Source: Woeseiaceae bacterium (GTDB lineage: Bacteria > Pseudomonadota > Gammaproteobacteria > Steroidobacterales > Woeseiaceae). Taken from it: DNA of 33,148 bases. Made by a program: the position numbers and the translations under genes. Numbering within the stretch: the stretch's first letter is position 1; the number at the start of each line of letters is the position of its first letter. Where the stretch lies: positions 1-33,148 of the forward strand of contig JBLHLN010000001.1 in NCBI GenBank assembly GCA_047620565.1, read 5' to 3'. The notes beneath the pieces are model-generated. The model was not told where the DNA came from. It saw nothing but the letters and a program-made list of their open reading frames with translations, and made no database searches. Shown here piece after piece: positions 4,050 to 31,453 of this stretch.

Positions 4050-5984
4050 TTACTGGCCGAAGTTGACGCGAACGCCAACAAAACCGGAACGTCCGCGAGT
4101 TTTGTACCCGTACACCTGTTCATATTCTTCGTCGAGCAGGTTAGTGACCCGGGCGAACAGATTGACGTTGCGCGTGAGATCAAATCCGCTGGTCAGGTCG
4201 ACCAGCCAGCTTGAATCCAGGGTGACGATCTCGGACGGCGCAGGAAAAGGCGGGAAAAATATATCGGTTCTTGAGCCGCCGTAATCTGCAACCAGCAGGA
4301 TATTTGCTCTATTGTCGAAAAATCGGTAATTGCCGCTAATGCTACCGCTATGTCGCGGCCGTCGCAGTTCGCGGGTTTCGATGCCCTGGTCGTCTTTCTC
4401 TTTGGCATCGGTGTATGTATAGGACGCAGAAATTTCCATGCGTTCCGAATATTTCCACGATGACGAGAACTCGACACCACGCCTTGAGCTGTCACCAGCA
4501 ACATTTTCTGCCGTGAACAGAAATGTCAGCGGGTCAAAAACAAAACCGTTGATTTCGTCTTCAAGGTCCTGGTTGAAAACGGTTAGCTGCACTGACAATG
4601 CTTCATCAAGAAATAGCTGTTCAAAACCGAATTCGATCGATGTAGATTTTTCGGGTTTCAGATCCGGGTTACCAATAAACTGACCCGGAAAAAAACCGAA
4701 GCGCTCGATGAAAGTCGGTGCCTTCTGCCCGGTACCAACGCTGGCGCGCAGCCGGGTAGTCTCATTGAGTTCATAGGCGAGCGAGAATCGCCCGGTTAAC
4801 GCATTCTCGAAATCGCTGTAATCATCGTAGCGGGCACTCAGCAGCCAGGTAATTCTGCCGATTGAATGGCCCTGGTAGTCTGCAATTACGCTGTTGACAC
4901 TCGTATCCTGATCCTGGTTCGGGTCACCAAAACCAACTTCCCCGCGCTGTTCAAAATTCGTCGTTTCATGCTCCAACGCGAGAGACAATATGTTTTCGGC
5001 GAGCCGAATATCTGCCTGGTAACTGATGGTGGTTCGATCCGATGCGGTCGAAGACACTTCAACGCCATCAGTGAGATTGTTATTGCTTGTATCGAAATAC
5101 CGAACATTCAAATGATGCAGGAATCGGCCGCCCGGGGACTCCAGCGAGCTGCCAATATGCAAATACGTCTGGCTGGTGTCGGTGGCTACATCTGCATCAG
5201 CAGGAATACCGGTGACAAAAAAATCGACAGGATCAAATTGTGAATAAGCATCAACGACGCGCGCTCCAAAATCGACAGTCAGCCTGTCTGACGCGAGAAA
5301 TCGGCCGGACAACGATGCCGTCGTCATATCCGAGTCGTCATCTTCGCTGCCGGTACGCGATATATTAGTGCCATCGGTATTGAGGCTCTCGAGCGCATAG
5401 CCAAGCGACCAGCGCTCACCACCGGCGCCACCGTTAAAGCCGGCGTTGACGGTACTGTGCGAACCGGCTTCAGTGTACGCAGACAACTCCGGGCTGGAAG
5501 CGCCCGAACGAGTGATGACATGTACGACGGCGGCCACGGCGTCGCTTCCCCACAGTGAGCTTTGCGGTCCTCGCACAATCTCTATGCGCTCAATATTGTT
5601 TGTGCTGAGCAACTCCCAGCGAAACTCATCACCACTGGCTGGGTCATTTGCCCGGATTCCGTCGATCAGCACGAGAACGTGATTGGCCTCGGAGCCTCTC
5701 ACCCGTACCTGGGTTTGTGATCCTGTCGTCCCGGAATGGCTGACGGCGAATCCCGGAACTGTTCGCAAGAGATCGGTGACATAGCGCGCCTGCCGATACT
5801 CAATTTGTTCGCGTGTAATGACTGATGTTGCGCTGCCGAGGTTCGCTAGCTCAAGCGGGGACCGCGAAGCGGTGACGACAATGTTGTCGAGTTTTTCCTT
5901 TGCAGCGGTTTCAGATTGGCTGTGAGCTGGCGTGCACACTACGAACAAAGCAAGCGCGGGTACTGCCAAGTGCCTGAATGACAT
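4050..5984 (-). CDS. btuB: TonB-dependent outer-membrane cobalamin receptor (BtuB-like)
   Basis: A signal peptide is followed by the TonB box DNIVVTA. The plug region (VITREQIE...DLLRTVPGF...RVRGSEANHVLVLIDGIRANDP...ERIEIVRGPQSSLWGSDAVAAVVHVIT) aligns closely with E. coli BtuB. The gene is directly preceded by a cobalamin riboswitch. Confidence 0.85.
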   Translation of the reverse strand: MSFRHLAVPALALFVVCTPAHSQSETAAKEKLDNIVVTASRSPLELANLGSATSVITREQIEYRQARYVTDLLRTVPGFAVSHSGTTGSQTQVRVRGSEANHVLVLIDGIRANDPASGDEFRWELLSTNNIERIEIVRGPQSSLWGSDAVAAVVHVITRSGASSPELSAYTEAGSHSTVNAGFNGGAGGERWSLGYALESLNTDGTNISRTGSEDDDSDMTTASLSGRFLASDRLTVDFGARVVDAYSQFDPVDFFVTGIPADADVATDTSQTYLHIGSSLESPGGRFLHHLNVRYFDTSNNNLTDGVEVSSTASDRTTISYQADIRLAENILSLALEHETTNFEQRGEVGFGDPNQDQDTSVNSVIADYQGHSIGRITWLLSARYDDYSDFENALTGRFSLAYELNETTRLRASVGTGQKAPTFIERFGFFPGQFIGNPDLKPEKSTSIEFGFEQLFLDEALSVQLTVFNQDLEDEINGFVFDPLTFLFTAENVAGDSSRRGVEFSSSWKYSERMEISASYTYTDAKEKDDQGIETRELRRPRHSGSISGNYRFFDNRANILLVADYGGSRTDIFFPPFPAPSEIVTLDSSWLVDLTSGFDLTRNVNLFARVTNLLDEEYEQVYGYKTRGRSGFVGVRVNFGQ

Positions 5985-6095
5985 CTGTTATTCTCCCGCC
6001 CGGACCCCCGTACCATGGCAATAATGTTGATCGGGGAAGGAGGGGAGATTTTCATCTCCACGTAATCGCCCGCCGCGATCGAACTGTGGACCAAT

Positions 6096-6284
6096 CGACA
6101 GGCCGGTCTCCGGACTCATAAGTGATGCAAGCATCGCGTCGATCGCCTTCCCACGCTCGTGCGCAGTGGCTTCATTGATCGACTGACTTATTTACCGTTG
6201 CGGGGGCAGTGACGGAGTTGCCAAAACTGGCGCACCGTCTTCCCGTTTAATATGTAGCGCGAAACGCCACATAAACACCTGTCG
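6096..6284 (-). promoter_or_regulatory. Cobalamin (B12) riboswitch aptamer in the btuB leader
   Basis: The minus strand reads CGACAGG(P1)...AAACGGGAAGACGGTGCGCC...CACTGCCCCCGCAACGGTAAATAAGTCAG...GAAGCCACTGCGCACGAGCGTGGGAAGGC...TGAGTCCGGAGACCGGCCTGTCG. The conserved GGGAA/GGTG core, GCCCCCGCAACGGTAA, AGCCACTG...GGGAAGGC and the B12 box (AGTCCGGAGACCGGCC) are all present. P1 closes as CGACAGG / CCTGTCG. Confidence 0.9.
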
Positions 6285-6296
6285 AGTTCGCGAGAA

Positions 6297-6325
6297 ACGA
6301 TACGCCTCGAAATTCCCTTTTGCAA
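6297..6325 (-). promoter_or_regulatory. Candidate sigma70 promoter for the riboswitch-btuB transcript
   Basis: The minus strand has TTGCAA (6325-6320), a 17-nt spacer, then TATCGT (6302-6297). This places a start site a few nt upstream of riboswitch P1 at 6284. It is a pattern match only. Confidence 0.3.
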
Positions 6326-9739: not shown

Positions 9740-10342
9740 TCAGAATGCGATGCGCAGAAATTCATGCAGGTCATCCCGGGCCATTTTTTGCTGATCCCAG
9801 AGTTGAAACTCCTGCGGGAAAACACCGGACGACTGTAATCGAAGGTCGGTCGCTTCAGCGATCAGCCTGATCTGATCCACGGTAACCTCATAGTAGGCAT
9901 CTACTGCCGATGCGACCGGTTTGAGATATGCGGGCTCACTTAAACCGATGGAATCCGGCGTCCAGCCGATGACATTCAGCGATAGCGGCTCACCATCCGC
10001 AAAAATTAAAATCGACTCAAAGGCATTGCGATGCTCGGAGATTTCGGTAACCCGCATCGTGCTCCAGATTCCGACCCAGAGATAATATCGAAGACTTCCA
10101 ATGCGATTAACCTGGATCGGACCCATATTTACCAGGTTCCTCGCGTAGGCGGCCTTGGCCCAGTTTTCCCGATAGAGAATGAGGGGTGCTTCGACAAATG
10201 TAACAGTCACGCCTGTCAGTGGATCGAGTTTCTCATTGCTGATTGACGGAGACGTTCCGCAGCTGATCAGCCCCAGCAGAAAAAATATTGCTGCGCCTCG
10301 GCAAGCCGATTGGCATGAGAGAAGCAGGTCGCGAGCCGGCAT
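9740..10342 (-). CDS. Lipoprotein of unknown function, last gene of the multihaem operon
   Basis: The lipobox is FFLLGLIS-C-GTSPS. The ATG shares 1 nt with the stop of the upstream gene (TGATG at 10342), implying translational coupling. I recognise no family. Confidence 0.7.
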   Translation of the reverse strand: MPARDLLLSCQSACRGAAIFFLLGLISCGTSPSISNEKLDPLTGVTVTFVEAPLILYRENWAKAAYARNLVNMGPIQVNRIGSLRYYLWVGIWSTMRVTEISEHRNAFESILIFADGEPLSLNVIGWTPDSIGLSEPAYLKPVASAVDAYYEVTVDQIRLIAEATDLRLQSSGVFPQEFQLWDQQKMARDDLHEFLRIAF

Positions 10343-12855
10343 CAGAAAAAAGCCTGGTAACCAAGATTAATAAAGTAGGATTCTCGATCGAGATTTACGA
10401 TATTCGTTTGACGCTCGACAAATTGCTTGCCAACTTCAAGCTCCATGCGAAATTTTCGACTCCATCGTAATTGCATGCGCAGGCCCGGTGTATAGATCCA
10501 TTCGTAGTCTATCTCTCCGAGTCTCTTCCGACGGTCCACGCGCAGTCGCGGATTAATACGGAATTTTTCCCCGAATGGCATACGGGTATCAAGGCTTGCG
10601 GATATGACTTCTGCCGTGTCAGATGTTGAATATCGCAGACCGATAATAGACACATCTCCCTCTTTCAGGAGGCTGCTGGCAGTCAGGTTGGCTGAATAGT
10701 ACTCGTAGCTGGTCTTCTGTGTCGCCTCGACGCCACCTGACGCGGGCGTTCCATCCACGTCAGTCTGATTAACATCTGCACTGATTTGCAGCCTCGGCGT
10801 AAGCGAATGTGAAACGCCAAGAGAAAACGTGGTGGCAATTGAGGTGCGATCGATTCCTAACTGGCGGAGCTCGTCTTCACTGAAAATCACTGCCAACTCG
10901 GCAAAGGAAGCAACTGGTTGCCCGATAATGGCATTGCCCGTGCTCAGGAACGGACTGCGTCGTCGATCCAATGAGCCATGCAGGGTCAGACGATTTGCAA
11001 AACGCCAGCTCCCATGCAAATAGGCGCTGCCAATTTCCTTAAACAACGTGTCGTAATCGAGCATGCCCCAAAGACTCTGATTTGCGCCGAAATAGCGAAA
11101 TTCCGCACCGATAGCCTGTCTATCGTCGATGCCTTCAATATCCTGTTGAACGTAGAACATGCCCAGTTCCAGATCCTCCAGAATGGGACCATAGGTGACG
11201 CTGGCGCCATAGAATTTCCTCTCCGAGTTGATGCCAGCCGAGGATGAATTGACCGGCATGCCCATCACTGCATTCACCAGAACGCGGTCACTGGCCTGGT
11301 AGCCAAGATTGAGTCCGTCGAAGCGTCCCAGGACACCACCGGTATTTCTTGATTGCCTGCCCACCCTGCCGCGCAGTCCTGTTCTGACGTCAGCAAGGTC
11401 GGCGTAGGCGTAGGAGATGCGAACGTCGTTGCCTGATCCGCTTTCAGCGTCCAGGAAATCGCTGCGGTATCCCGCAGAAATTCGGCTGCTGAAGTCAAAG
11501 CGTTGTCCTCGCCGCCTGGCATCGAAATTGACGTCTGAGTAAAGCGCAGACTGGCTGATGATTTCATCCTGCGAATTCATCTGATTGACGTCACGGCGAT
11601 AATACTGCGAAAAATACGTCTGAATTCTCCAATCGCTTTGCGTCGATCTGGAGCTGCCAACCCGGGTGTCGGAAGTGGTCGTAGTACTGCTGGAGCGTCG
11701 ATCGACCGCCAGAAGCGCGGCAAGTCGTTGGTTGACCCGCGTTGCCCCGTCATCGTCAGGGTAAAGAGACAGATACTTTTGATACTCTGCTCTTGCGTGC
11801 GCCTCCTGGCCGTTCTTCTCTCTGCACAAGGCCAACAGTTCCTGTGCCTCCGGGTGCCTATCATGATTAGGCACGCGCAGAACCTTGGTATAAATCTGCA
11901 CCGCTCTTGAGTATTCTTTCGCGACCATGGCAAGTCGGGCGTCATTCATAAGAACGTCAATCTGATCCAGGCCGATCGAAGCAAATACAGTGTTGGCAGC
12001 AGTATCGGTCGGCTCTGTTACAGCCGCATCCGGACGACGTTCTGCGACAGCTGTCGTGCCATCATCAGCCCGGTCAATCCATGCAGTCGGGTACTGGTCG
12101 CGCAGTTTCAGGAGTTCCACCTGGGCCTCGGCAGTACTGTTGAAGTGACCGAGACGCAATCGATACCAGGTTGCGCCCGCCAGAACCACTTCCGTCTCAA
12201 ACACTTCGAGACCGGCCGAAATAGTGATTGCAGACATGTCGGACTCGGCATGCGGCTGGCGGCTGGATGAAAGATTGATTGCGTAGGAAAGTTGCGGCTC
12301 CGGTGGTCTCCTTACTCTTACACCGCTGGCGCCCGACTTCGCCCTGGCTTTGGCGAGCGGCTGCTCGAAGCGCAGTCTGACGGTTATGGTGTTCGAAGTA
12401 CCGCTGTGCAGCACTTCGTATTCGACCGCATCGCCAAATACGAGCGTTAGTATCTGGCCGCCGCTGCTGTTTCCATCGTAGATAATTTCCTGCAAATTTA
12501 TGAGGTCTGCCTGCAGGGGTCGGTATTGTTCGCGTGACTGAGCGGCCAGCGGCGACACACCGTTGCAGATCGTTGTGGCCTCCAGTTGAATGCGCAGCGT
12601 TTCTCCGCGGTCCACCGGGAAATGATCGATGTACTCGACGCCACAAGCCAGTTCTATCGTTACTTCCGCGAGTGCGTTGCCGCGCGTGACCTTGGAGCCG
12701 GTGATAAATCCGGGCGCGGCAAAGCCCCCCGGCGCCAGGCTTACAAGCAGCAAGCAGGCCAGGTACTTTATGAAACGAGAATTGAGAATGCTGAAATCCA
12801 ATGCGTAGCCGCTACCATTCTTTGTCACTGATTCTGTGACAGCCACTCTCAGCAC
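10342..12855 (-). CDS. Outer-membrane-type protein: N-terminal AMIN-like region + SPOR domain + TPR segment + C-terminal beta-barrel
   Basis: Residues are numbered from the GTG at 12855. The signal-like stretch is YLACLLLVSLAPGGFAAPG. A SPOR-like segment spans about aa 188-262 (YAINLSSS...ATWYRLRLGHFNSTAEAQVELLKLRDQYPTAWI). TPR-like helices span about aa 296-385. From about aa 405 there is an alternating-polarity, Y/G/S/D-rich sequence ending ...NLGYQAFF, the aromatic C-terminus typical of BAM substrates. The start is uncertain: GTG at 12855 or TTG at 12801. Confidence 0.7.
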   Translation of the reverse strand: MLRVAVTESVTKNGSGYALDFSILNSRFIKYLACLLLVSLAPGGFAAPGFITGSKVTRGNALAEVTIELACGVEYIDHFPVDRGETLRIQLEATTICNGVSPLAAQSREQYRPLQADLINLQEIIYDGNSSGGQILTLVFGDAVEYEVLHSGTSNTITVRLRFEQPLAKARAKSGASGVRVRRPPEPQLSYAINLSSSRQPHAESDMSAITISAGLEVFETEVVLAGATWYRLRLGHFNSTAEAQVELLKLRDQYPTAWIDRADDGTTAVAERRPDAAVTEPTDTAANTVFASIGLDQIDVLMNDARLAMVAKEYSRAVQIYTKVLRVPNHDRHPEAQELLALCREKNGQEAHARAEYQKYLSLYPDDDGATRVNQRLAALLAVDRRSSSTTTTSDTRVGSSRSTQSDWRIQTYFSQYYRRDVNQMNSQDEIISQSALYSDVNFDARRRGQRFDFSSRISAGYRSDFLDAESGSGNDVRISYAYADLADVRTGLRGRVGRQSRNTGGVLGRFDGLNLGYQASDRVLVNAVMGMPVNSSSAGINSERKFYGASVTYGPILEDLELGMFYVQQDIEGIDDRQAIGAEFRYFGANQSLWGMLDYDTLFKEIGSAYLHGSWRFANRLTLHGSLDRRRSPFLSTGNAIIGQPVASFAELAVIFSEDELRQLGIDRTSIATTFSLGVSHSLTPRLQISADVNQTDVDGTPASGGVEATQKTSYEYYSANLTASSLLKEGDVSIIGLRYSTSDTAEVISASLDTRMPFGEKFRINPRLRVDRRKRLGEIDYEWIYTPGLRMQLRWSRKFRMELEVGKQFVERQTNIVNLDRESYFINLGYQAFF

Positions 12856-15487
12856 AATTCTGGTCGTTGCTCAGACCTCGGTGGTCATCTTCGCCTGCCT
12901 TGTAGTCTCTCGCATGACAACCGGCGCAGTTTGGTCGGTAACCGGGTGACGACCAGTTGACGTTCTCCGAGTTATTCTGGTGGCACTCGGTGCATTGAAA
13001 GTTGCCACGATGGTCTTGCGGTTCATATGGCAACGTAACGTGACGGTAATCGGCCGGTGTCCAGCCATTGGTGATATGGCAGGTATCGCATTGCTGGTTC
13101 GTGGCAAAGTGATTCGTGTTCTGCCCGATCGCCGCAACGCCGTTGTGGCAGGACGTACATGAGCCCAGCACCTGGCTGTGATCAACAGTCAACACAGGCG
13201 CAAACACATTCGTCGTATGGCAGTCTTCACAGATGTTTGTCGTTTGCACGTGCGTCAGATTCTTGCCGGTCGCGTCGGTACCGTTATGACAACTGACACA
13301 GTTGCCAGTGATGTTCGCATGGTCGAAATTCGCGGGCAGCCAGGCAACCGTGCTGTGGCAATCATCACAATTGTTGCCACTGGCAATATGCGTCGGATGT
13401 TTACCTGTCGCTGTGACGCCGTCGTGACAGGAACCACAAGCGCCAAGCACCTGGGTATGATCGACTATCGTCACAGGCACAAATACGTTGGTGTTATGGC
13501 AGTCTTCACAAACATTCGTCGTCTGTGGATGGGCAGGGTTCTTGCCCGTAGCATCTGCGCCGTTGTGGCAATTGACGCAATTTCCGGTAATCGTCGCGTG
13601 GTCAAATGTCGCGGGCAACCAACCGGCCGTGGTGTGACAATCATCACAGGTGTCACCACTCGCGATGTGCGTTGGGTGTTTGCCGATGGCAACAACGCCG
13701 TCATGGCACGAATCACAAGTGCCTATTACCTGCGTGTGATCAACGGTCATTACCGGTGCGAAAATGTTGGTTGTATGACAATCTTCACAGACATTGGAGG
13801 TCTGGATGTGGGTCGGATTCTTGCCGGTGGCATCCGTACCGTTGTGACAACTGACACAATTGCCGGTGATGTTCAGGTGATCGAAATTGGCGGGTAACCA
13901 GCCAACCGTGCTGTGGCAGTCATCGCAATTGCTGCCGCTGTCAATATGGGTCGGATTCTTGCCTGTTGCGGTGACACCATCGTGACAGGCGCTGCACGAA
14001 CCAATAACCTGGTTGTGGTCAACGGTTATCACCGGTGCAAAGACGTTACTGCTGTGACAGTCCTCGCAAACGTCTGTCGTTTGTACGTGTGTTGGATTCT
14101 TGCCGGTGGCATCTGTGCCGTTATGGCAGCTGACACAATTACCGATGATATTCGCATGGTCGAAATTTGCGGGCAACCAGGCAACCGTGCTGTGGCAATT
14201 GTCACAGGTGTTGCCACTGGCAATATGCGTGGGGTGTTTGCCGGTGGCATCTGTGCCGTTGTGGCAGGAACCGCAACTTCCCAGGACCTGGGTGTGATCC
14301 ACGGTTACTGCAGGCACAAACATATTCGTGCTGTGGCAGTCTTCGCAAACATTGGTCGTTTGCACGTGCGTCGGGCCTCTGCCGATGGCGTCCGTACCGT
14401 TATGGCATGAGCCGCAGGTTCCCAGCACCTGCGTGTGATCAACGGTCGATACTGGAGCAAATGCAACTGTTGAATGACAGTCTTCGCAAACATTCGTTGT
14501 TTGCACATGCATCGGATTCTTGCCCGTCGCGTCTGTGCCGTTATGGCAGCTACTGCAATTGTCCGTAATGTTCGCATGATCAAACTTGGCAGGTAGCCAG
14601 CCAACCGTCGTATGACAATCGTCGCAAGTGTCGCCGCTGGCAATATGCGTGGCATGCTTGCCGGTGGCAATAACGCCATCGTGGCAGGAGCCGCAACTGC
14701 CAATTACCTGCGTATGATCTACGTTAGTTGGCGGCACCCAAATCGTGGGGCTATGGCAGTCCTCGCAGATATTGGTCGACTGAATATGAGTTGCATCTTT
14801 GCCGGTCGCCTCGATGCCGTTATGGCAGCTGACGCAATTGCCGAGAATATTTACATGATCAAAATTCGCCGGTACCCAGCCAAAAGTCGTATGGCAATTG
14901 TCGCAGGTGTCGCCGCTGGTAATGTGCGTTGCGTTCTTGCCAGTAGCGCTGACGCCATTGTGGCAACCAACGCAGTTACCAACGACTCCACTATGGTCGA
15001 ATACGGCCGGTAACCAGCCGGTCGTACTGTGGCAATCGTCACACTGATCGCCGGAGGAGATGTGGCCTGGAGTTTTTCCAGTCGCCTGAAAGCCGTTATG
15101 GCAGCCAAAACAACTCCCCGTGAGTGATGAATGGTCAACAAACGCCACCGGAACCCACGACGACGTTGTGTGACAGTCCGAGCAGATACCGTTCGTTGCT
15201 ATGTGATCTGGAGATTTCGCAGACGCGCGAACGAGCCCACCGGGAGAGTGACAGTTTACGCATGCCTGCTGCGTCGTACCGAATGTCGCGCTAACGTGAC
15301 ACCCTTCACAGGTCACATTGGCATGAGCGCCATCAAGTACAAAACCGGTGCTGAAATGATCAAAGGGCTGCTGCGCAAAAGCATTTGATTGCAACAACAA
15401 CATGCCCAATAGTGCGATCACGAGCAGACCGATCCAATAATGTGTGCTGTCCTTAGCACCCCTTGCAAAACGCTTCGAGAATTTCAT
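12812..15487 (-). CDS. Giant multihaem c-type cytochrome (35 CxxCH + 1 CxxxxCH), paired-CXXCH repeat type
   Basis: I count 35 CxxCH motifs plus NCAESGCH in the translation. The signal is MKFSKRFARGAKDSTHYWIGLLVIALLGMLLLQSNAFA-QQ. The preferred ATG at 15487 forms an ATGA overlap with the upstream stop (15484-15486). Each ~23-24-aa unit carries exactly one further His, consistent with bis-His ligation. Confidence 0.9.
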   Translation of the reverse strand: MKFSKRFARGAKDSTHYWIGLLVIALLGMLLLQSNAFAQQPFDHFSTGFVLDGAHANVTCEGCHVSATFGTTQQACVNCHSPGGLVRASAKSPDHIATNGICSDCHTTSSWVPVAFVDHSSLTGSCFGCHNGFQATGKTPGHISSGDQCDDCHSTTGWLPAVFDHSGVVGNCVGCHNGVSATGKNATHITSGDTCDNCHTTFGWVPANFDHVNILGNCVSCHNGIEATGKDATHIQSTNICEDCHSPTIWVPPTNVDHTQVIGSCGSCHDGVIATGKHATHIASGDTCDDCHTTVGWLPAKFDHANITDNCSSCHNGTDATGKNPMHVQTTNVCEDCHSTVAFAPVSTVDHTQVLGTCGSCHNGTDAIGRGPTHVQTTNVCEDCHSTNMFVPAVTVDHTQVLGSCGSCHNGTDATGKHPTHIASGNTCDNCHSTVAWLPANFDHANIIGNCVSCHNGTDATGKNPTHVQTTDVCEDCHSSNVFAPVITVDHNQVIGSCSACHDGVTATGKNPTHIDSGSNCDDCHSTVGWLPANFDHLNITGNCVSCHNGTDATGKNPTHIQTSNVCEDCHTTNIFAPVMTVDHTQVIGTCDSCHDGVVAIGKHPTHIASGDTCDDCHTTAGWLPATFDHATITGNCVNCHNGADATGKNPAHPQTTNVCEDCHNTNVFVPVTIVDHTQVLGACGSCHDGVTATGKHPTHIASGNNCDDCHSTVAWLPANFDHANITGNCVSCHNGTDATGKNLTHVQTTNICEDCHTTNVFAPVLTVDHSQVLGSCTSCHNGVAAIGQNTNHFATNQQCDTCHITNGWTPADYRHVTLPYEPQDHRGNFQCTECHQNNSENVNWSSPGYRPNCAGCHARDYKAGEDDHRGLSNDQNCAESGCHRISDKEW

Positions 15488-17052
15488 TGCAATGACCTCA
15501 CTTCCGTGAAGGAATTTTCTGTGTGGCAACGGCTACAATCCTGGCCAAATTCACTATCGTGGACATCGTCAGCGCGATGACAATCCACGCAGCTGCTACC
15601 TAGCCTGTGCATCGATGCCAGGGAGGTTCGATGGCAGTCGTCACACGCAACCTCTACATGTGCGCCTTCGAGTATGAATTCTGTACGAGTGTCGTGATCG
15701 AACAGCCACAAGTCCCAGGCGACCGGGTTATGACAATCGCCACATTGTTCCTCAAAGCGGTTTTCGTGGACATCGTCTTCCAGGTGGCAATCGATACATT
15801 GATTATTTGTGCCAACAAACACCTGGCTTTCATGGCAGGAGTCGCACTCGAGGTTGTCGTGTTCACCAAGCAGCGGGAATTTCGTAATGTCGTGATCAAA
15901 AAATGGTGCTTCCTGCCAGCTCTCTTCCGTGTGGCAATCATTACACTGATCGCCCTGCTTGCCGCCGTGCGGCTCGTCCTCCAGGTGGCAGGAGGCACAG
16001 AATGTTTCAGGCGATGTGTCAAAAATCGGTTCAACGTGACAGTCGACACACGCGACCGTTTCGTGAGATCCGTGCAATTCGAAATCGGTGTCGATGTTGT
16101 GCAGGAAGTGTATGTCCGGCCACTTGTCGTTGGTATGGCAACCTGCACAGTCGGTGCCGTTATGGCCATCGTGGTCATCATCGTCCACGTGGCATCCTGC
16201 GCAAGTCGTATCGAGCTCATCAGCAAACGGATCGTCACTGTGGCAATCATCGCAGATCAGCAGCGTGTGACTGCCCTCGAGCAGGAAGTCGGTATCGCGC
16301 GCATGGTCGAAGCTGGTGTCAGTCCAGTCAACCGGGTTATGACATTTTTCGCATTGCTCACCGCTGCGACCGTCGTGAGCGTCATCAGCTGCGTGACAGC
16401 CGAAGCATGTGTCCTCCGTGAAGGCGAAAGACTTGTCCTCGTGACAGTCGCCACAGGCTACGTCAACGTGATTGCCAACCAATGGATAGTCAGTTGTGTC
16501 ATGGTCAAAAGTGACCTCGAGCCAGTCCGTTTCGTTGTGACAGCCCGCGCATTCCGTACCAATACTCTCATCGTGAATGTTGTCCTCACGATGGCAATCG
16601 ATGCATTCTTGTGGCGCGTCGCGACGCTTGTCCGATGGCTCATGGCATCCGGCGCACTCGGCTTCGGCATGTTTGCCGACTAGTTCGTAGTCAGTAAATG
16701 CATGATCGAAATCCGACTCATCCAGTACGATGATGTTGGCGTTCCGTCCTTCGTGATCTGTATGGCAAGAGAAACATTCAGCGGAGCTTGCCTCGGCGAA
16801 TTTGCCGTGAAATCCCGATTCACTATTGATGTCGCCTTTAACATCTTCGTGACAGTCGGCACAAAGCGTGGATTGCTCCGCGCGATCAAAGCGCTTGTGA
16901 CAGGAGGTGCAATCCGCCTCCAGTTCCGCATGCCCCAGGATGAGTTCCCCGGGCATTACGAGGGATTCGACGTTCTGAGCGACAGATGGCTGGCTATGAA
17001 TGCAGGCCATCATGATCAATGCTCCAGTTAGTACGAATGTCCATCGTTTCAT
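15484..17052 (-). CDS. 21-haem c-type cytochrome built from seven trihaem (cytochrome c7/c3-like) modules
   Basis: There are 21 CxxCH motifs with a repeating spacing pattern of C..CH-(11-13)-C..CH-(13)-C..CH-(~27-29). Each module also has three extra conserved His (FDH, G.H, D.H). The preferred ATG at 17052 gives MKRWTFVLTGALIMMACIHSQPSVAQ, which is a signal peptide or a possible atypical lipobox MMAC. Confidence 0.9.
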   Translation of the reverse strand: MKRWTFVLTGALIMMACIHSQPSVAQNVESLVMPGELILGHAELEADCTSCHKRFDRAEQSTLCADCHEDVKGDINSESGFHGKFAEASSAECFSCHTDHEGRNANIIVLDESDFDHAFTDYELVGKHAEAECAGCHEPSDKRRDAPQECIDCHREDNIHDESIGTECAGCHNETDWLEVTFDHDTTDYPLVGNHVDVACGDCHEDKSFAFTEDTCFGCHAADDAHDGRSGEQCEKCHNPVDWTDTSFDHARDTDFLLEGSHTLLICDDCHSDDPFADELDTTCAGCHVDDDDHDGHNGTDCAGCHTNDKWPDIHFLHNIDTDFELHGSHETVACVDCHVEPIFDTSPETFCASCHLEDEPHGGKQGDQCNDCHTEESWQEAPFFDHDITKFPLLGEHDNLECDSCHESQVFVGTNNQCIDCHLEDDVHENRFEEQCGDCHNPVAWDLWLFDHDTRTEFILEGAHVEVACDDCHRTSLASMHRLGSSCVDCHRADDVHDSEFGQDCSRCHTENSFTEVRSLQ

Positions 17053-17065
17053 CCCGTTAAACCAA

Positions 17066-17974
17066 TTAGTACATGTGCACTGCAAGTACATGTAACAAGG
17101 CGGAAATAATCATCATGAAAAAAAGCGGCAAATGCAGAACATGCCAAATAGAAAGAAATTTCTCGTACAACGTGAATTGAGCGACATTGCTCATCTGATG
17201 CACAAATTTTCGTATGTACAAAGAGGTGGATTTCTTCAGGCGCGGCAGGTCTCGGTCAATTGTCGGAGACTCAGCGGCGCGCTCCTTCAATTCCCGGTTC
17301 GCTGCCCGTGATAATGAAAACCAAAGCGTATAGCGACGAATTTTCCACTTCAGGCTTGCGCTGCTTTTTATCGTTCGGGTAAATTGATCGCCCTGGACTT
17401 CCGCGGAAACTGCTTCCAGTCGCTTTGTCAGGCCCGGCAACAGGTTCGCGAAACCGCTGTTTGCTTCAAGTGAGTTCTGCAGATCATTACGTAATTCGTT
17501 CAGGCTGGTTTTCCGACCGTACAGGCCCCTGTGTACATGAGCATAAATGTGCCTCCCGACAATACCGCTGCCGGCGACAAGCAACATGCAGTAAAGGGCG
17601 ACCTTGCTATTAAATGAGCCAAGTCGAAAATTGGAGTGGTACAAAATCAATAGCGGCCCGAGCAGGCCGAGTATCATATGAATGCGGAACCAGCCGCTTG
17701 TGGTGCCAAGAAATCCGAAGGCCTTTAGTCGCTTTCGTAGCGGATATAACAGCAGCACCAACATCATTGAGCCACCAATGATACCGAGCCAATAGCCAAC
17801 ACCGTATTCGGCGTCGATGAAGCCGTAGTCCCGCAGCAACCAGCCGATACCGATGGCGATCGTTAATAGCGTGTAACTGTAAAAAGTACTGCTTTGCCGG
17901 GTTTCCCTGGTGCCGAACAAACGTTCGCGGAAATTGCCGGACGCAAAAGCCGTGTCGAGGGTCGTTTCATTCAT
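17066..17974 (-). CDS. 5-TM His-rich inner-membrane protein with two Hx13H motifs (candidate dihaem b-type electron-transfer subunit)
   Basis: Residues are numbered on the 319-aa track ORF. TM3 (FRIHMILGLLGPLLILYH) has H116 and H130 separated by 13 residues. The C-terminal TM (WHVLHLPLFFMMIISALLHVLAVH) has H298 and H312, also separated by 13. A ~120-aa amphipathic soluble insert lies between TM4 and TM5. The preferred ATG at 17974 (MNETTLD) overlaps the upstream gene by 8 nt. I recognise no named family. Confidence 0.6.
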   Translation of the reverse strand: MNETTLDTAFASGNFRERLFGTRETRQSSTFYSYTLLTIAIGIGWLLRDYGFIDAEYGVGYWLGIIGGSMMLVLLLYPLRKRLKAFGFLGTTSGWFRIHMILGLLGPLLILYHSNFRLGSFNSKVALYCMLLVAGSGIVGRHIYAHVHRGLYGRKTSLNELRNDLQNSLEANSGFANLLPGLTKRLEAVSAEVQGDQFTRTIKSSASLKWKIRRYTLWFSLSRAANRELKERAAESPTIDRDLPRLKKSTSLYIRKFVHQMSNVAQFTLYEKFLSIWHVLHLPLFFMMIISALLHVLAVHMY

Positions 17975-18791
17975 TGACCGACCCCTCGCCAGCGCCGGTA
18001 ATAAGCAATTCGACAAGGTCGCCATTGGCCGGGACTATCGGCGCCGATGTGACCTCGAAACTATTTAGCGTATCGCCGGCATTTCCGGAGCGAGACACCT
18101 TTGCCGTTACGACCAGTTGCGCGTAATCCGACATGCTGGTTCCGGGTACCATTGCCTGCTCATCCGATAGTTCAAACTCCAGCGGCAGATCGGCAACCGA
18201 CTTGCGCAAGGCAGCAACCGGCATTCGCTGTTCAACCGACTCTTTGGCGAAGATAAAAATCGTATCGCTCATTTGCACCTGCACGGCGACCTCGGGGGAT
18301 AAGGACAAGCGTCCACGAATTCCAGTACTCGCAGGACTGCTCGCGACATTGTCGTCGTCACTCGAGCCGTATAGTGATTTCTCCAGTTCAGGGTGCGACT
18401 GGCCGAGCGAGGTAGCTTTTTCGTAGGCGGCGATCGCTTCCTTTTTTTGCCCGAGATGGTCATAAGAGCGCGCAAGCAGTAACCAGCCAGCGCCATCGTC
18501 CGGCTGTTTTTGCAGACGTGCCTTCAGTCCATCAATAAGGCTGTCAACCGTTGGAACTCCGTCGCTGCTTTTCGTGCTGACCGGGTTCTGATGTTGTGCA
18601 CGAGGCTCTTCGGTTATGGCTGCCGGTGTGCCCAGCGCTACGTAGAGGCCGACAGCAGTTATCGGCACCAGTACAGCGAGCAGAAATCGGGGGGATCGGA
18701 GCAGGCGTTTTGCCGGCCCAAGCGGGAGCGCAACGATCATGATCGCTGCTACCAGCATCATAATGATCATCCCCCAGAAAAAGTACGACAT
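17967..18791 (-). CDS. ccmI: CcmI/CycH-like c-type cytochrome biogenesis (apocytochrome chaperone) protein, stand-alone copy
   Basis: Two N-terminal TM helices flank a basic loop (IMIVALPLGPAKRLLRSPRFLLAVLVPITAVGLYV). A TPR segment follows (GAGWLLLARSYDHLGQKKEAIAAYEKATSLG). The C-terminal domain is CcmI-type (IRGRLSLSPEVA...TIFIFAKES...RMPVAALRKSVADLPLEFELSDEQAMVPG...VVTAKVSRSGNAGDTL). Confidence 0.7.
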   Translation of the reverse strand: MSYFFWGMIIMMLVAAIMIVALPLGPAKRLLRSPRFLLAVLVPITAVGLYVALGTPAAITEEPRAQHQNPVSTKSSDGVPTVDSLIDGLKARLQKQPDDGAGWLLLARSYDHLGQKKEAIAAYEKATSLGQSHPELEKSLYGSSDDDNVASSPASTGIRGRLSLSPEVAVQVQMSDTIFIFAKESVEQRMPVAALRKSVADLPLEFELSDEQAMVPGTSMSDYAQLVVTAKVSRSGNAGDTLNSFEVTSAPIVPANGDLVELLITGAGEGSVNE

Positions 18792-19180
18792 ATGTTTCTT
18801 CCTAACAGCTAAAATCCGGCCGCATTCTACTTATGTTCACCAGAACTGCCAGCGTATTTCCGCAACTCGTTGTGAACCGGTTCGCAAACGTGATTGAGCA
18901 CTCTTTAGTACACGAAAACTACGCAAATTAGGTTCCACTAATTCACAAAAAATCTAAAAAAAACAAATACCTGTCGCTTTTTGCAGACAAAGCGAGATGG
19001 AATGAGAATCACTTGCATTGGAAGGATGTTTTTTGCCAAATTTGCATCAGTTTGTCGCTCGTATTGCTCGCTTTGCTTTTGCCGGAAATAGTCAAATTTG
19101 CGTAGCGTGAACTGATTGATGAACGAGCGGAAAACTCCCGGTATGCTCTGGCCGAACAGAAATATGCCAGCGGACTAATT

Positions 19181-20500
19181 GTGAGCGGATCCTTACTTAA
19201 CTACCTGTACCTGATACCAGTAATCATCCTGGTGGGCTGGTACATGCGTCGCCACTCAAACCTTGAAAAGCGCAGTCTGGAAGCGTTACGGATCGCTACT
19301 GAAGCCGGCATGCTGGAGCCGCCAACGCTGCATCCCGAGATTGACCTGAATACCTGCATAGGCTGCAAATCCTGTGTTGCTGCCTGTCCGGAACAGGACT
19401 CGCACGTGGTGCTTGGCATGATCGGAAAAAAAGCGCGCCTCGTCGGGCCGTCTGATTGCATCGGTCATGGTGCCTGCAAAACAGCATGCCCGGTCGGCGC
19501 AATTAAGCTTGTATTCGGTACCGCCACGCGCGGCGTGGATATCCCGGTCGTCAAACCAAATTTCGAGACGGACGTTCCAGGCATTTTCATTGCCGGCGAA
19601 CTCGGCGGCATGGGACTGATTCGAAATGCGATCGAGCAGGGTAGACAAGCAATGCAGTCGATCAGTGAACTGCTGAAGAAGAAACACAATAACGATCATG
19701 ACATCGTTATCGTTGGCGCGGGTCCGGCAGGCTTTTCAGCGTCCCTGGGTGCGAAAGCGGCGAACATGAAGTGCGTGACCATTGAGCAGGAAACACTCGG
19801 CGGCACTGTTGCGCATTTTCCGCGACGAAAACTGGTTATGACGCAGCCGGCGGAATTACCGATAGTGGGCAAGGTTTCCTTTAAGGAAGTGCAGAAAGAA
19901 GACTTAATGGAATTTTGGCAGAAGGTTGAGAAAGACACCGCTGTCGAAATCAATTACAACGAGCGGGTTGAGTCGGTGCAGCCGGTATCGGGCGGCACCG
20001 GTTACCTGGTAGAAACCAATCGCGGCAAATACAACACGCGGACATTACTCCTGACGATCGGGCGGCGAGGTACGCCGCGTACCCTTGGCGTGCCCGGTGA
20101 AGAGTTGCCAAAAGTTGCGTATCGGCTCATCGATCCCGAGCAATACAAAGACCAGCATGTGCTGGTCGTTGGCGGCGGTGATAGTGCGCTCGAAGCTGCG
20201 ACCAGCATTGCAGAGGAGCACGGGACAACCGTTACACTCTCATATCGTTCTGGCGCTTTTGCTCGAGCCAAACAGAAAAATCGCGAAAAGATCGAGGCCA
20301 TGCAGGGAGCCGGAAGACTGCGCGTGTTGCTGAATTCCAATGTAAAAGAAATAACAGAGGATGCAGTAACCATTGCTCTTGAAGATACTGAGGAGACCAT
20401 CGAGAATAATTTTGTGATCGTTTCTGCCGGCGGCATCCTGCCAACGAAGTTCTTGCAAAGTATCGGCATCATCGTGGAAACAAAATGGGGCAATGAGTAG
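19181..20500 (+). CDS. Membrane-anchored 2x[4Fe-4S] ferredoxin domain fused to an FAD/NAD(P)H oxidoreductase (thioredoxin-reductase-like fold)
   Basis: GTG start. The N-terminal TM helix is LLNYLYLIPVIILVGWYM. The two cluster motifs are CIGCKSCVAACP and CIGHGACKTACP. The dinucleotide motifs are IVIVGAGPAGFSA and VLVVGGGDSALEAA. A GD-type FAD motif (VPGIFIAGELGGMGLIRNAIEQGRQA) lies before rather than after the Rossmann motifs. Confidence 0.8.
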   Translation: MSGSLLNYLYLIPVIILVGWYMRRHSNLEKRSLEALRIATEAGMLEPPTLHPEIDLNTCIGCKSCVAACPEQDSHVVLGMIGKKARLVGPSDCIGHGACKTACPVGAIKLVFGTATRGVDIPVVKPNFETDVPGIFIAGELGGMGLIRNAIEQGRQAMQSISELLKKKHNNDHDIVIVGAGPAGFSASLGAKAANMKCVTIEQETLGGTVAHFPRRKLVMTQPAELPIVGKVSFKEVQKEDLMEFWQKVEKDTAVEINYNERVESVQPVSGGTGYLVETNRGKYNTRTLLLTIGRRGTPRTLGVPGEELPKVAYRLIDPEQYKDQHVLVVGGGDSALEAATSIAEEHGTTVTLSYRSGAFARAKQKNREKIEAMQGAGRLRVLLNSNVKEITEDAVTIALEDTEETIENNFVIVSAGGILPTKFLQSIGIIVETKWGNE

Positions 20501-25436: not shown

Positions 25437-27422
25437 TTAACAGGACACGCAGTTGTGATTATTGATGGCGCCGTAGTTCTCGAGTAGCGCTATGGTGTCC
25501 GGAAACGGGGCGACTCGCTGAATCGGCCCGTTCGCCATATCCACTGTAGTCTGACCTTTGCGACTGATCACCATCACATCTGCGCCCTGGTCGACCAGGT
25601 ATGTCACAAGCTCGTTGTCGCCACGTGACGCAGCGTGATGCAATGCCGTATAGCCATTCGCATCCCTGCTGTTTACATCGGCGCCACATTCCTCAACGAG
25701 AAACCTGACTGCCGGCAACCAGCTATCCGGAGCATAACGATGCGCGTTGCCCGCGAATTGCTGCCCATACCCTGCACCAGCTGCCGCATGAATTGGATGG
25801 ATGAATGGTCCGCCAACCGGGACAGGTGGCAAGCCTGATTTGTCCTCATCCTCGTCCACTTCTTCCGGCTCGGGTTCCTGCGAAGCGGTATATGTCGTCG
25901 CTTTGGCGCTGTCGCCTTTCTTTATCTCTTCCTCGACAGGATCAGGTTGCGGACGTCTGCGACGTTCCGGCCGTTTTACGGTCGGCATATCGGCATCAGC
26001 GCCATGTTCCTTCAGCATCTCCATGGCTTTGACGTCGAGTGCCTGTGTCGCCCTCCAGAAGGGTGTGGCTCCTTCGTAATGGATGCCGGCAGCGCCCAAT
26101 ACTGCAAAAGTGTATTCCGAATACCAGAGGTGTGACACCAACCGCGCATTCGGATCAGCGCCGGCATCGAGCAATGCCTCCATGACTTCATAGTGGGTGG
26201 CGATCTGTTGTTGATGTTCGATCGGATGCGAGTACGATGCGCGCGGCGCCCAGGTGCGTTCAATAACCGCAAACAGCGGGGCGGTGCCTGCGATACTGGT
26301 CAAATTCGGGTTGGCACCGCGCTCGATCAGCCGCAATGCAACGTCGAACTGACCATTAACGGCAGCCATCAATAACGGCGATGTGTCGTCGCCGCCACTG
26401 GTTTGATTTATATCTGCTCCGGCATCCAGCAGGAGTTCGACTGCCTCAATGTGCCCCTGGCGAATGGCGTGCTGGAGTGCAGTAAGTCCGCCCATGCTGC
26501 CGACCAGCTGTCCATAGGTGGGTCTTTTTGGTTCCGCATTCTCGTCTTCGGCATCTGCTGCCGCCGCATAATCGTATTCCGGCTCACCGTCAGCGTTGTA
26601 GGTAACCGCAAGCGCACATTTGTCGATTACAGGTTCATCATCTTCCTCAGATGGCACAAAATCATCACAGGACGGGTCGGGAACATCGGGCCATTTGCGC
26701 TGTATTTCACGCGACGCCTCGATGGCCGCTTGCACCTGGCTGGGCTGAGGTTGCCAGTTCGGACCGCCACCTTCTTTTACCTTGAACTCCGCAAGAAATT
26801 CGACAATGCGTTTTTCCGCAGCCTTGTCTGCTTTTTCGTCTGTAGCGACATCCTTAACTCGCGCGGTAATCGCAGTGTCAGCGCCAGCTGCAAGCAGAAC
26901 CTTCATTACATCGATGCGGTTATAAGCCGAAGCAAATATCAGCGGTGTCTGTCCCCACGCACGCTCGACGGCGTTTACATCAGCTCCGGCTTCAAGAAGC
27001 GCGACTACAGACTCCGGATCGCCGGATGCTGCTGCCAGGTGCAGTGGCATGACGCCGGAATTTACCGTTGCCGCGCTGGCGTCCGCATTTGCGGCCAGCA
27101 GCACTTTGACAACTTCGGCATTGCCGTTGCGGCTGGCAATGTGCAAAGGACGATAACGCCCGATGCGGGTACCGGCCTCGATATTGCCGCCGGCGTAAAT
27201 GAGTATTTCGGCAATTTCGCTGTCACCACGCTCCGCGGCCCAATGCAGCGCGGTCATACCGTCACCCTGAGGTTCATTGACATCCTCGCCATCCCTGAGC
27301 AATTGACGCAGCGATGACAAATCGCCACTTTGCGCAGCATCGGCCACCGGTTTTACAGCCGCACTTGCTGTGCCTGCGACGGCCAGCAGCAGCAAAAAGA
27401 AAATCGTGCGTAGTTTGCTCAT
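25437..27422 (-). CDS. Secreted ankyrin-repeat protein (661 aa) with acidic linkers
   Basis: The signal is MSKLRTIFFLLLLAVAGTASA-AV. Many ANK units are present (GMTALHWAAERGDSEIAEILIYAGGNIEA, RPLHIASRNGNAEVVKVLLAANAD, MPLHLAAASGDPESVVALLEAGADVN, GYTALHHAASRGDNELVTYLVDQGADV). The ATG at 27422 forms an ATGA overlap with the upstream stop. Confidence 0.85.
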   Translation of the reverse strand: MSKLRTIFFLLLLAVAGTASAAVKPVADAAQSGDLSSLRQLLRDGEDVNEPQGDGMTALHWAAERGDSEIAEILIYAGGNIEAGTRIGRYRPLHIASRNGNAEVVKVLLAANADASAATVNSGVMPLHLAAASGDPESVVALLEAGADVNAVERAWGQTPLIFASAYNRIDVMKVLLAAGADTAITARVKDVATDEKADKAAEKRIVEFLAEFKVKEGGGPNWQPQPSQVQAAIEASREIQRKWPDVPDPSCDDFVPSEEDDEPVIDKCALAVTYNADGEPEYDYAAAADAEDENAEPKRPTYGQLVGSMGGLTALQHAIRQGHIEAVELLLDAGADINQTSGGDDTSPLLMAAVNGQFDVALRLIERGANPNLTSIAGTAPLFAVIERTWAPRASYSHPIEHQQQIATHYEVMEALLDAGADPNARLVSHLWYSEYTFAVLGAAGIHYEGATPFWRATQALDVKAMEMLKEHGADADMPTVKRPERRRRPQPDPVEEEIKKGDSAKATTYTASQEPEPEEVDEDEDKSGLPPVPVGGPFIHPIHAAAGAGYGQQFAGNAHRYAPDSWLPAVRFLVEECGADVNSRDANGYTALHHAASRGDNELVTYLVDQGADVMVISRKGQTTVDMANGPIQRVAPFPDTIALLENYGAINNHNCVSC

Positions 27423-28786: not shown

Positions 28787-28817
28787 ATTCGAACCTCTAA
28801 AAAATTCTATTACTCGA

Positions 28818-31190: not shown

Positions 31191-31453
31191 CCAGCTCCCC
31201 CCGGGCAGCGGCTGTTGTACGACCCCCAATAATACAACGGTTTTGCGCCTTTGAAGCTCAGTATTCGCCCATATTGACAGCGCAATCTCGGAAGCCGTGA
31301 CAAATCGCCTGAATCTGGCGACTAGCTCGGCGCTGCCGCGGATATCGAGTCATCCTGATCAGGGTCGCATGGCCTGTCGGAGCCATCCGGCAGGTATGAC
31401 CTTGCGGTATAGTGCTGCCCATCGTGATCTAACGCCGCCAAGAAGAATTCATT

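Follow-up and report, generated by a model that had tools for sequence, protein, structure and literature searches.

A PCC3-type multihaem cytochrome cluster with a conserved iron-sulfur flavoprotein gene in a Woeseiaceae genome: a probable electron conduit across the cell envelope

Introduction

PCC3, a candidate system of extracellular electron transfer since 2017, was described as a gene set for a porin, an extracellular multihaem cytochrome (MHC), an MHC of the periplasm and a protein of the inner membrane (IMP), the last about 300 aa long (He, Barco, Emerson and Roden, 2017; PMC5566968). The present work concerns a gene cluster that very probably belongs to this family, located on a 33,148-nt stretch of DNA from a Woeseiaceae bacterium (NCBI GenBank assembly GCA_047620565.1, contig JBLHLN010000001.1, positions 1 to 33,148 of the forward strand). 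The whole of this stretch is called the window below, and all positions refer to it.

In the published PCC3 clusters, the extracellular and the periplasmic MHCs have medians of 34 and 21 haems, respectively, the former being of low complexity, enriched in T, S, A and G and variable in haem count. The hypothetical IMP has five transmembrane (TM) helices, with WX3HX13H on TM3 and TM5 and SGXXG on TM4 (PMC5566968). The genes Slit_1446-1449 of Sideroxydans lithotrophicus ES-1 are ordered IMP, cyt-p, cyt-e and porin (PMC12016527, PMC8788666). Other examples are Slit_0867-0870 of the same strain and the clusters of Leptothrix cholodnii SP-6 and the Riftia endosymbiont; 22 TM regions were predicted in the L. 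cholodnii porin, and the MHCs of the Riftia symbiont are built from repeats of about 66 aa (periplasmic) and about 23 aa (extracellular).

Woeseiaceae are among the most abundant bacteria of marine sediments, and no link between PCC3 and Woeseia or Woeseiaceae was found in the literature searched.

Results and discussion

Organization of the gene cluster

The initial annotation of the window, made from its letters and a list of open reading frames, had described six minus-strand genes at 9740-18791, here named A to F, and these were found exactly as placed, forming a tightly coupled series. It had missed a seventh conserved gene, G, transcribed divergently at 19181-20500 on the plus strand, so that the cluster is likely a unit of seven genes rather than six. 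The features, starting from the G end, are as follows.

19181-20500, plus strand: gene G, membrane-anchored protein of 439 aa with a 2×[4Fe-4S] ferredoxin domain and a YpdA/TrxR-type FAD/NAD(P)H domain (Pfam, synteny)
18792-19180, between A and G: divergent promoter region, 42% GC, with the CRP-type palindrome TGTGAACCGGTTCGCA at 18871-18886
17967-18791, minus strand: gene A, small CcmI/CycH-like apocytochrome c chaperone paralogue, 274 aa (Pfam Ig_CycH, TM topology)
17066-17974, minus strand: gene B, PCC3-type inner-membrane protein, 302 aa, five TM segments (invariant motifs, hydrophobicity)
15484-17052, minus strand: gene C, putative periplasmic 21-haem cytochrome c, 522 aa, Sec signal peptide (21 CxxCH, Cytochrome_C7)
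12812-15487, minus strand: gene D, cytochrome c with 35 CxxCH and one CX4CH, 891 aa, Sec signal peptide, presumed outer or extracellular wire (motif counts, Pfam)
10342-12801, minus strand: gene E, predicted outer-membrane protein, 819 aa from TTG 12801, reading frame open to 12855 (AlphaFold2 model, Pfam SPOR/TPR)
9740-10342, minus strand: gene F, conserved predicted outer-membrane lipoprotein, 200 aa, lipobox ...LISC with Gly at +2 (lipobox conservation)

All four gene junctions that had been reported proved correct. A stops at 17967 and B starts with ATG at 17974, giving an 8-nt overlap; B ends at 17066, 13 nt ahead of the ATG of C at 17052; C and D share an ATGA overlap at 15484-15487; and the A at 10342 is common to the stop of E and the ATG of F (1-nt overlap). 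The start of B at 17974 is supported by the length of its close homologues, all of about 302 aa, and the starts of C (ATG 17052) and D (ATG 15487) are consistent with the N-termini of their homologues. Only the D/E junction is loose: D ends at 12812, and E may start at TTG 12801, GTG 12828 or GTG 12855, with the 819-aa product from TTG 12801 fitting best to the homologues (812-823 aa).

Correspondence to the PCC3 description

Genes B-C-D-E follow the order IMP, periplasmic MHC, extracellular MHC and porin. At 302 aa, B has five segments in its hydrophobicity profile, as had been counted before, and the motifs W95xxxH99x13H113, S136GxxG140 and W277xxxH281x13H295. In 80 homologues these motifs are without variation, and nearly all of the 150 representatives of 50%-identity clusters (33-63% identity) have them as well. 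C has 21 haem motifs in seven repeats behind a Sec signal. D agrees with the second MHC in haem number, repeats and composition, its extracellular place being presumed, and E, encoded directly downstream of D, was modeled by AlphaFold2 as a 22-strand barrel. Since the IMP motifs, haem numbers, repeat periods, gene order and 22-strand barrel all match, the cluster can be assigned with high confidence to PCC3 in the sense of He et al. (2017). A tblastn search against plasmids for PCC3 reference relatives was empty, a genome scan with narrow patterns gave only Woeseiaceae-type and other gammaproteobacterial metagenome-assembled genomes, and a further homology search from a distant homologue of 66% GC yielded no named isolate. 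The initial annotation had set the cluster outside the described systems and had considered an Hx13H membrane subunit foreign to PCC3. Neither view can be kept, as every feature of the published definition is matched (PMC5566968) and WX3HX13H is itself a defining feature of the PCC3 IMP.

Conservation of the cluster and its seventh gene

Of 79 related genome loci, essentially all whose length allows it to be seen keep the order A-B-C-D-E-F, and with this recurrence a chance arrangement can be dismissed. The closest relatives of B and E come from Woeseiaceae and unclassified gammaproteobacterial metagenome-assembled genomes (MAGs). In an exhaustive HMMER search, the IMP family comprised 2934 50%-identity clusters at E<=1e-3; with the threshold at E<=1e-30 there were 651. 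Four of the IMP homologues, membrane proteins of about 300 aa (P0035, P0067, P0418 and P0463), bear public names that do not suit their sequence, "transcriptional regulator" or "pyridine nucleotide-disulfide oxidoreductase"; the latter may have been carried over from the neighboring G.

Among the genes flanking the operon in the window, G alone is conserved in relatives. Its homologue was found in 76 of the 79 related loci, the remaining three being truncated upstream, and in all six distant lineages with enough flanking sequence, whose IMPs are only 33-41% identical to B. In the distant lineages it is a Fer4 plus Pyr_redox_3 protein of 432-448 aa, encoded divergently to the IMP gene or at the opposite end of the cluster. 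Overall, G adjoins the IMP gene or sits in the cluster across lineages of 37-66% GC wherever the flank suffices.

Gene A lies upstream of B in most Woeseiaceae-type loci. Some distant relatives lack it or have a reduced form, a TPR protein of 122 aa; in the distant locus L084, for example, its position is taken by a 122-aa TPR_CcmH_CycH gene. F follows E in most loci.

The inner-membrane protein and its putative cytoplasmic partner

The four invariant His residues of B form HX13H pairs on two helices, a geometry fit for two b haems, and B is therefore regarded as a putative di-haem b transmembrane electron relay. This assignment is motif-based, because the fold and profile searches gave no match: B belongs to no Pfam family (the best hit, DUF4405 at E 0.12, was non-significant) and has no sequence relative in the Protein Data Bank (PDB) by profile search. 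Between TM4 and TM5, B has a basic helical insert of about 130 aa that should face the cytoplasm and is a plausible docking surface for G.

G consists of a conserved N-terminal hydrophobic segment followed by basic residues, a ferredoxin domain (Pfam Fer4_10, aa 52-104) and a flavin domain (Pyr_redox_3, aa 176-432). The basic stretches, in the TM4-TM5 loop of B and after the anchor of G, suggest that both point to the cytoplasm. The cluster motifs CxxCxxCxxxCP and CxxHxxCxxxCP have all their ligand positions (C59, C62, C65, C69, C93, H96, C99 and C103) invariant in 69 homologues. The second motif, residues 93-103, has His96 where Cys is usual, and it could thus hold a His-ligated [4Fe-4S] or [3Fe-4S] cluster. 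The distal clusters of [NiFe]-hydrogenases, which pass electrons to partner proteins, carry a His ligand. The flavin domain matches the NCBIfam model YpdA at 2e-48, below the cut-off, and its closest PDB entries are Bdr/YpdA 7a7b (2e-27) and ferredoxin:NAD(P)+ oxidoreductases of the TrxR type; no conserved CxxC was seen in this domain in the homologue alignment. Altogether, G has the look of a ferredoxin:NAD(P)+ oxidoreductase that is tethered to the membrane and carries its ferredoxin as a fusion, and we consider it somewhat probable that it is the cytoplasmic partner of the conduit. No link between PCC3 and an iron-sulfur (FeS) flavoprotein of the G type was found in the literature searched.

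Among 71 intergenic regions homologous to that between A and G, 41 contain the palindrome TGTGA-N6-TCACA (up to two mismatches allowed), about 12 being the number expected from shuffles, and in most relatives the CRP-type palindrome stands about 70 nt upstream of the G start. Genes of CRP/FNR-family regulators were seen near the cluster in loci L084 and L086. A sigma-70-like site lies at 18852-18824 on the minus strand, such sites not being enriched over shuffles in the scanned region; the promoter and terminator scans gave no more hits than shuffles do, and consensus scans of the A/G intergenic region for Fur, FNR and ArcA were all negative at the thresholds used.

The two cytochromes

Both C and D have ordinary Sec signals and Pfam content of the Cytochrome_C7, c3 and Paired_CXXCH type, with about 25 aa per haem. 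The 21 CxxCH motifs of C are spaced by about 17, 18 and 33 residues and make up seven c7-like trihaem units of about 67 aa (Cytochrome_C7, 8e-22). Its homologues have 21 haems in nearly all loci, in lineages of 37-66% GC. D has no lipobox, and neither cytochrome is a lipoprotein; for C this possibility was considered and rejected, the Cys in its signal peptide not being conserved.

The one-haem unit of D is 23 aa long and includes one extra His; such units are grouped into 93-aa four-haem repeats. At the DNA level, one four-haem repeat corresponds to a 279-bp tandem repeat (4.6 copies with 71% matches at 13137-14407); a repeat of this kind carries a risk of mis-assembly in short-read MAGs. The protein is of low complexity, rich in T (11.9%), G (9.2%), N (8.0%) and A (7.4%), and matches Cytochrome_C7 at 2e-55 and Paired_CXXCH_1 at 2e-32. 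A weak match to the MtrA chain 6r2q_A in the PDB was also seen (E 6e-4). Among the homologues, the number of haems varies from 13 to 74, mostly in steps of four, which suggests that D expands and contracts by unit duplication.

The earlier motif counts of 21 and 35 CxxCH were right, and the total of 56 haems derived from them is probably one too low. The C-terminal part of D has an additional CAESGCH, that is CX4CH, in the region 12812-12940. This motif is kept in 31 of 46 homologues and is replaced once (in locus L017) by a canonical CARCH, which makes a 36th haem more likely. D thus probably binds 36 haems, giving 57 for the cluster.

With C of fixed and D of free length, we infer that C spans the periplasm and D extends outside the cell, which fits the published localization of the corresponding PCC3 cytochromes.

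The barrel protein, the lipoprotein and the chaperone

The AlphaFold2 model of E, built with 69 homologues, has a mean pLDDT of 78 (mostly 85-93 in the barrel) and shows, in this order, a signal helix, a beta-sandwich (residues 33-144), a SPOR-like fold (172-245), five TPR helices (278-366) and a barrel of 22 predicted strands (391-817) with a helical insert at 621-652. The C-terminus ...GYQAFF ends with an aromatic residue. Pfam recognized SPOR (8.9e-6) and TPR_16, and homologues of E carry source annotations such as "SPOR domain-containing protein" or "TPR repeat protein". In Foldseek, E matched only generic outer-membrane barrels, namely porins, ushers, TonB-dependent receptors, AlgE, BcsC and PelB, with E-values from 2e-7 to 5e-5. 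The initial assignment of its C-terminal part to an outer-membrane barrel is thereby supported.

The same annotation had considered a SPOR/TPR-fused barrel foreign to PCC3. The fusion is real: all 62 porin genes of the related and distant loci encode TPR plus barrel, 56 of them with SPOR and 54 with the beta-sandwich, which makes the TPR-barrel fusion an integral trait of this porin family and not a peculiarity of the window. He et al. (2017) mention neither TPR nor SPOR for the PCC3 porin (PMC5566968), and the fusion may be a trait of that same family which had not been described, not a departure from it.

A TPR-plus-barrel architecture also resembles that of exopolysaccharide exporters, and AlgE, BcsC and PelB, at about 1e-5, are among the Foldseek matches of E. 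One could thus imagine E as a polymer exporter of the PgaA/BcsC/PelB/AlgE type with an incidental cytochrome neighborhood. However, unrelated porins, ushers and receptors match E equally well or better, the conserved unit has no glycosyltransferase or synthase gene, and E co-occurs with the IMP and both cytochromes in distant lineages. Moreover, its barrel has 22 strands and not the 16-18 of the TPR-barrel exporters, so that this explanation is very improbable.

The large haem numbers, for which charge storage has been suggested, raise another alternative, in which C and D would act as a capacitor, storing electrons in the periplasm or at the surface, or would serve a soluble substrate, extracellular or periplasmic, in place of minerals; E would be mainly an anchoring scaffold and not a pore for a haem chain. 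The SPOR, TPR and beta-sandwich parts of E indeed indicate scaffolding to peptidoglycan and partners, and D is without a lipobox or a known surface-export signal. Furthermore, the loci L080/L081, from a lineage of 66% GC, have G, the IMP, a 21-haem and a 17-haem MHC, followed by yebC/ruvC, with no adjacent porin gene, which means that the inner module can occur without a linked barrel. Against such a store stand the barrel-TPR fusion in every porin-bearing locus, nearly always after the second cytochrome, and the contrast of a C that is constant in length with a D that varies freely, which argues for separate compartments. The 22-strand barrel is also large enough in principle, having the size of a plug-holding TonB-dependent receptor. 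Overall, the store appears improbable, less so than the exporter.

The earlier identification of a lipoprotein, a CcmI-like chaperone and signal peptides holds. About 50 homologues of F keep the lipobox Cys, and position +2 is usually A, S or G; the protein has no Pfam family, and a profile search found no PDB relative even with a 19-sequence profile. A matches Pfam Ig_CycH at 2.2e-24 (85.7 bits, cut-off 27) and TPR_CcmH_CycH just under the cut-off (39.1 bits against 42). With two TM segments (4-22 and 36-54), a basic loop between them and an acidic C-terminal domain of 220 aa, presumably periplasmic, its predicted topology is that of CcmI.

Proposed electron path

A PCC3-type cluster that builds one electron path across the whole envelope is the best explanation of these data and a likely one, in line with the general reading of the initial annotation, which had proposed a trans-envelope multihaem conduit. 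G, held at the cytoplasmic face by one N-terminal helix, would exchange electrons with NAD(P)H through FAD and two FeS clusters. They would then pass to B, where two stacked b haems would be bound by H99/H281, close to the cytoplasm, and H113/H295, close to the periplasm, and from there to C, whose rigid 21-haem chain of invariant length would form a periplasm-spanning rod. At or inside the 22-strand barrel of E, C would meet D, which with 36 haems and free length might project outward to minerals or other extracellular partners. Through its periplasmic parts, the beta-sandwich, SPOR and TPR, E would be fastened to peptidoglycan as well as to the cytochromes. A would act as a dedicated CcmI-like chaperone that hands the Ccm haem lyase these very long apocytochromes, and F, as an outer-membrane lipoprotein, would help to assemble or seal the barrel. 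That the cytochromes serve as a conduit, a wire of about 57 haems, is considered probable on its own account as well.

As for direction, a net outward flow is preferred tentatively and falls somewhat short of being probable. NAD(P)H would in this case feed the reduction of acceptors outside the cell, for instance Fe(III)/Mn(IV) oxides when oxygen is low, and the cluster would work as a two-component NOX/FRE-like system extended by cytochrome wires. Outward flow is favored because the cytoplasmic partner would be a low-potential NAD(P)H/FeS enzyme. It is also favored by bioenergetics: electron export across a di-haem relay runs with the membrane potential, as in NOX/FRE and MsrQ-Fre, and import runs against it. 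The third argument comes from expression in strain ES-1. Both of its PCC3 clusters were downregulated on Fe(II) compared with thiosulfate (PMC8788666), which is at odds with a dedicated Fe(II) oxidase, and the PCC3 cytochromes were low or zero in the proteomes of cells on magnetite (PMC12016527).

The opposite direction has been proposed by He et al. (2017), who favored inward flow to the quinone pool. Fe(II), Mn(II) or reduced minerals outside the cell, or else a syntrophic partner, would supply electrons that run through D and C to B, a quinone-reducing cytochrome b in this case, with G in a peripheral or regulatory role. Fe(II)/Mn(II) oxidizers and vent symbionts are among the hosts of PCC3 (PMC5566968), which is also widespread in Gallionellaceae; the IMP gene of one PCC3 copy in Sideroxydans CL21 is upregulated when the cells oxidize iron; and multihaem conduits such as Mtr/Mto are reversible. 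However, the ES-1 data from Fe(II) and magnetite speak against inward flow as well, a quinone route does not account for the NAD(P)H/FAD/FeS protein that is universally linked to B, and import over the di-haem relay would, as inferred from bioenergetics, oppose the membrane potential. Inward flow is therefore rated as unlikely, clearly less so than the electron store.

The points just given for inward flow also weigh against the path as drawn, and to them several others have to be added. PCC3 has been functionally unverified by experiment in the literature up to 2026, and the homology to it was deduced here from motifs, architecture and gene order compared with published descriptions, not from alignment. 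B had no significant match to the Ferric_reduct and cytochrome b families of Pfam, and its AlphaFold2 model, of moderate quality (pLDDT 71), had no Foldseek match below E 0.1. The coupling of G to B is deduced purely from synteny: the longer IMP homologues (430-680 aa) have no Fer4 or Pyr_redox domain and thus give no Rosetta-stone support for the link, while two of them have a SPOR domain in their N-terminal extension. The passage of a haem chain through the 22-strand barrel is putative, and MtrB was absent from the top 50 Foldseek matches of E, so that a specific similarity to MtrB is lacking. D, finally, has a plain Sec signal and no lipobox.

PCC3 as a whole may also be a quinone-independent two-component machine similar to NOX, in which G feeds B and the wire of about 57 haems exports cytoplasmic reducing equivalents, rather than a quinone-linked Fe(II) oxidase. 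This is the most far-reaching form of the outward proposal and remains doubtful. If true, one conduit would run from the cytoplasm to the surface of a mineral, in thousands of lineages and among them the Woeseiaceae; the CcmI-like A, the lipoprotein F and the 22-strand barrel with its TPR/SPOR anchor would be integral, overlooked parts.

Other genes in the window

An ankyrin-repeat protein of 661 aa is encoded at 25437-27422 (minus strand), about 5 kb from G. Seven loci of distant lineages (L068, L074, L078, L082, L083, L084 and L087) have a mutually homologous ankyrin-like protein of about 630-684 aa in the same operon downstream of G. The protein of the window was rejected as their ortholog, having only repeat-level similarity and lying 5 kb away. 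Next to it, at 27419-31229 (minus strand), is an adjacent pair of genes for a DUF1552 (HXXSHH) protein and a DUF1592/DUF1588/DUF1585/DUF1587/DUF1595 protein; such a pair is not conserved near the cluster in relatives. On the other side of the operon, a cobalamin riboswitch (RF00174, 103.7 bits) at 6084-6297 (minus strand) lies directly upstream of a TonB-dependent receptor gene at 4050-5984 (minus strand), which is the standard BtuB-type arrangement.

Significance

The presence of the cluster in the relatives described above makes PCC3 standard equipment of Woeseiaceae-type sediment bacteria; with an IMP family of about 2900 clusters at 50% identity, this widens its relevance well beyond the iron oxidizers, in which it first came to notice. 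G gives a concrete hypothesis for the metabolic connection and the direction of the PCC3 wire, and offers an explanation for the PCC3 genes falling, not rising, on Fe(II) in ES-1. The extended list of parts, namely A, F and the TPR/SPOR arm of E, provides the genes for co-expression when the complex is to be reconstituted.

Comparison with known systems

The initial impression that the parts are unlike the characterized modules is borne out by the curated models for MtrA/DmsE, MtrC/OmcA, NrfH and GSU2203, none of which was passed. The general logic, a periplasmic multihaem chain meeting an outer-membrane barrel and an outer cytochrome, is shared with MtrCAB, MtoAB and PioAB, but MtrCAB has 10 and 10 haems in place of the 21 and 36 of C and D. 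D has a weak, repeat-level similarity to the DmsE/MtrA decahaem family (TIGR03508, 151.9 bits against a cut-off of 192.2); the MtrC/OmcA model (TIGR03507) gave 19.5 bits against 209.3. MtrC is a lipoprotein with beta-barrel domains, and D has neither property. E matches no MtrB family, shows no MtrB among its top 50 fold matches and has 22 predicted strands with periplasmic SPOR and TPR parts. A 2025 study reported mtrCAB-type genes in Woeseiaceae sediment MAGs (PMC12175321); since D matches the MtrA/DmsE-family model below threshold, some of these mtr calls may be PCC3 cytochromes.

Quinol dehydrogenases of the CymA/NapC/NirT/NrfH type have no gene in the conserved unit, which has an IMP of putative di-haem b type and an FeS-flavoprotein instead; the NrfH-type model TIGR03153 gave only a repeat-level match to D (57.6 bits, cut-off 134.2). 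From Geobacter, the c7 polymers of the GSU1996 family are, like C, chains of c7-like trihaem units, seven in the case of C. D scores 76.7 bits with TIGR04257 "nanowire_3heme" (cut-off 40); the GSU2203-family model gave 90 bits, far under its 325-bit cut-off. The concept of a porin plus two cytochromes is common to OmbB-OmaB-OmcB and ExtEFG, which differ from the present cluster in the inner-membrane module and in the outer cytochrome, a non-lipoprotein here. Homologues of OmbB-OmaB-OmcB were absent from the iron-oxidizer genomes searched by He et al., who distinguished PCC3 as having no homology to that system (PMC5566968).

A shares with CcmI/CycH and NrfG the Ig_CycH domain, a TPR of the CcmH/CycH type and two N-terminal TM helices with a basic cytoplasmic loop, and its dedicated place in an operon parallels that of NrfG. 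Canonical CcmI is much longer, A having about one TPR pair, and the NrfG model scores only 16.6 bits on A.

Proteins of the NOX/FRE ferric-reductase-domain type have two HX13H His pairs on two TM helices and bind two stacked b haems, and in the two-component MsrQ-Fre the cytoplasmic NAD(P)H/flavin donor is encoded separately. The spacing of the His pairs in B and the separate gene G, a candidate NAD(P)H/flavin donor, recall both arrangements. B differs in its five TM segments, the large helical insert predicted to be cytoplasmic and the absence of a significant Ferric_reduct or cytochrome b match, and G in being a TrxR/YpdA-type flavoprotein with 2×[4Fe-4S] and a membrane anchor. The acceptors are different too: O2, Fe(III) chelates or MsrP in those systems, and in this cluster presumably a multihaem wire. 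The parallel of the PCC3 IMP to the ferric reductase domain had already been noted by He et al. (2017; PMC5566968).

PCC3 itself remains the closest system. The four core genes stand in the same order, the IMP motifs are identical, and the cluster has the 21-haem MHC with repeats of about 66 aa and the repetitive MHC of about 35 haems; the 22 strands predicted for E compare with the 22 TM regions of the L. cholodnii porin. The habitats already listed for PCC3 include those of marine-sediment gammaproteobacteria, to which the host belongs. The published descriptions consulted comprise four genes and do not mention G, the CcmI-like chaperone, the outer-membrane lipoprotein or the beta-sandwich/SPOR/TPR region of the porin. 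What this locus adds to the literature searched is thus the Woeseiaceae host, the predicted 22-strand barrel with its TPR/SPOR anchor, the recurrent chaperone and lipoprotein and, above all, the FeS-flavoprotein as a candidate partner.

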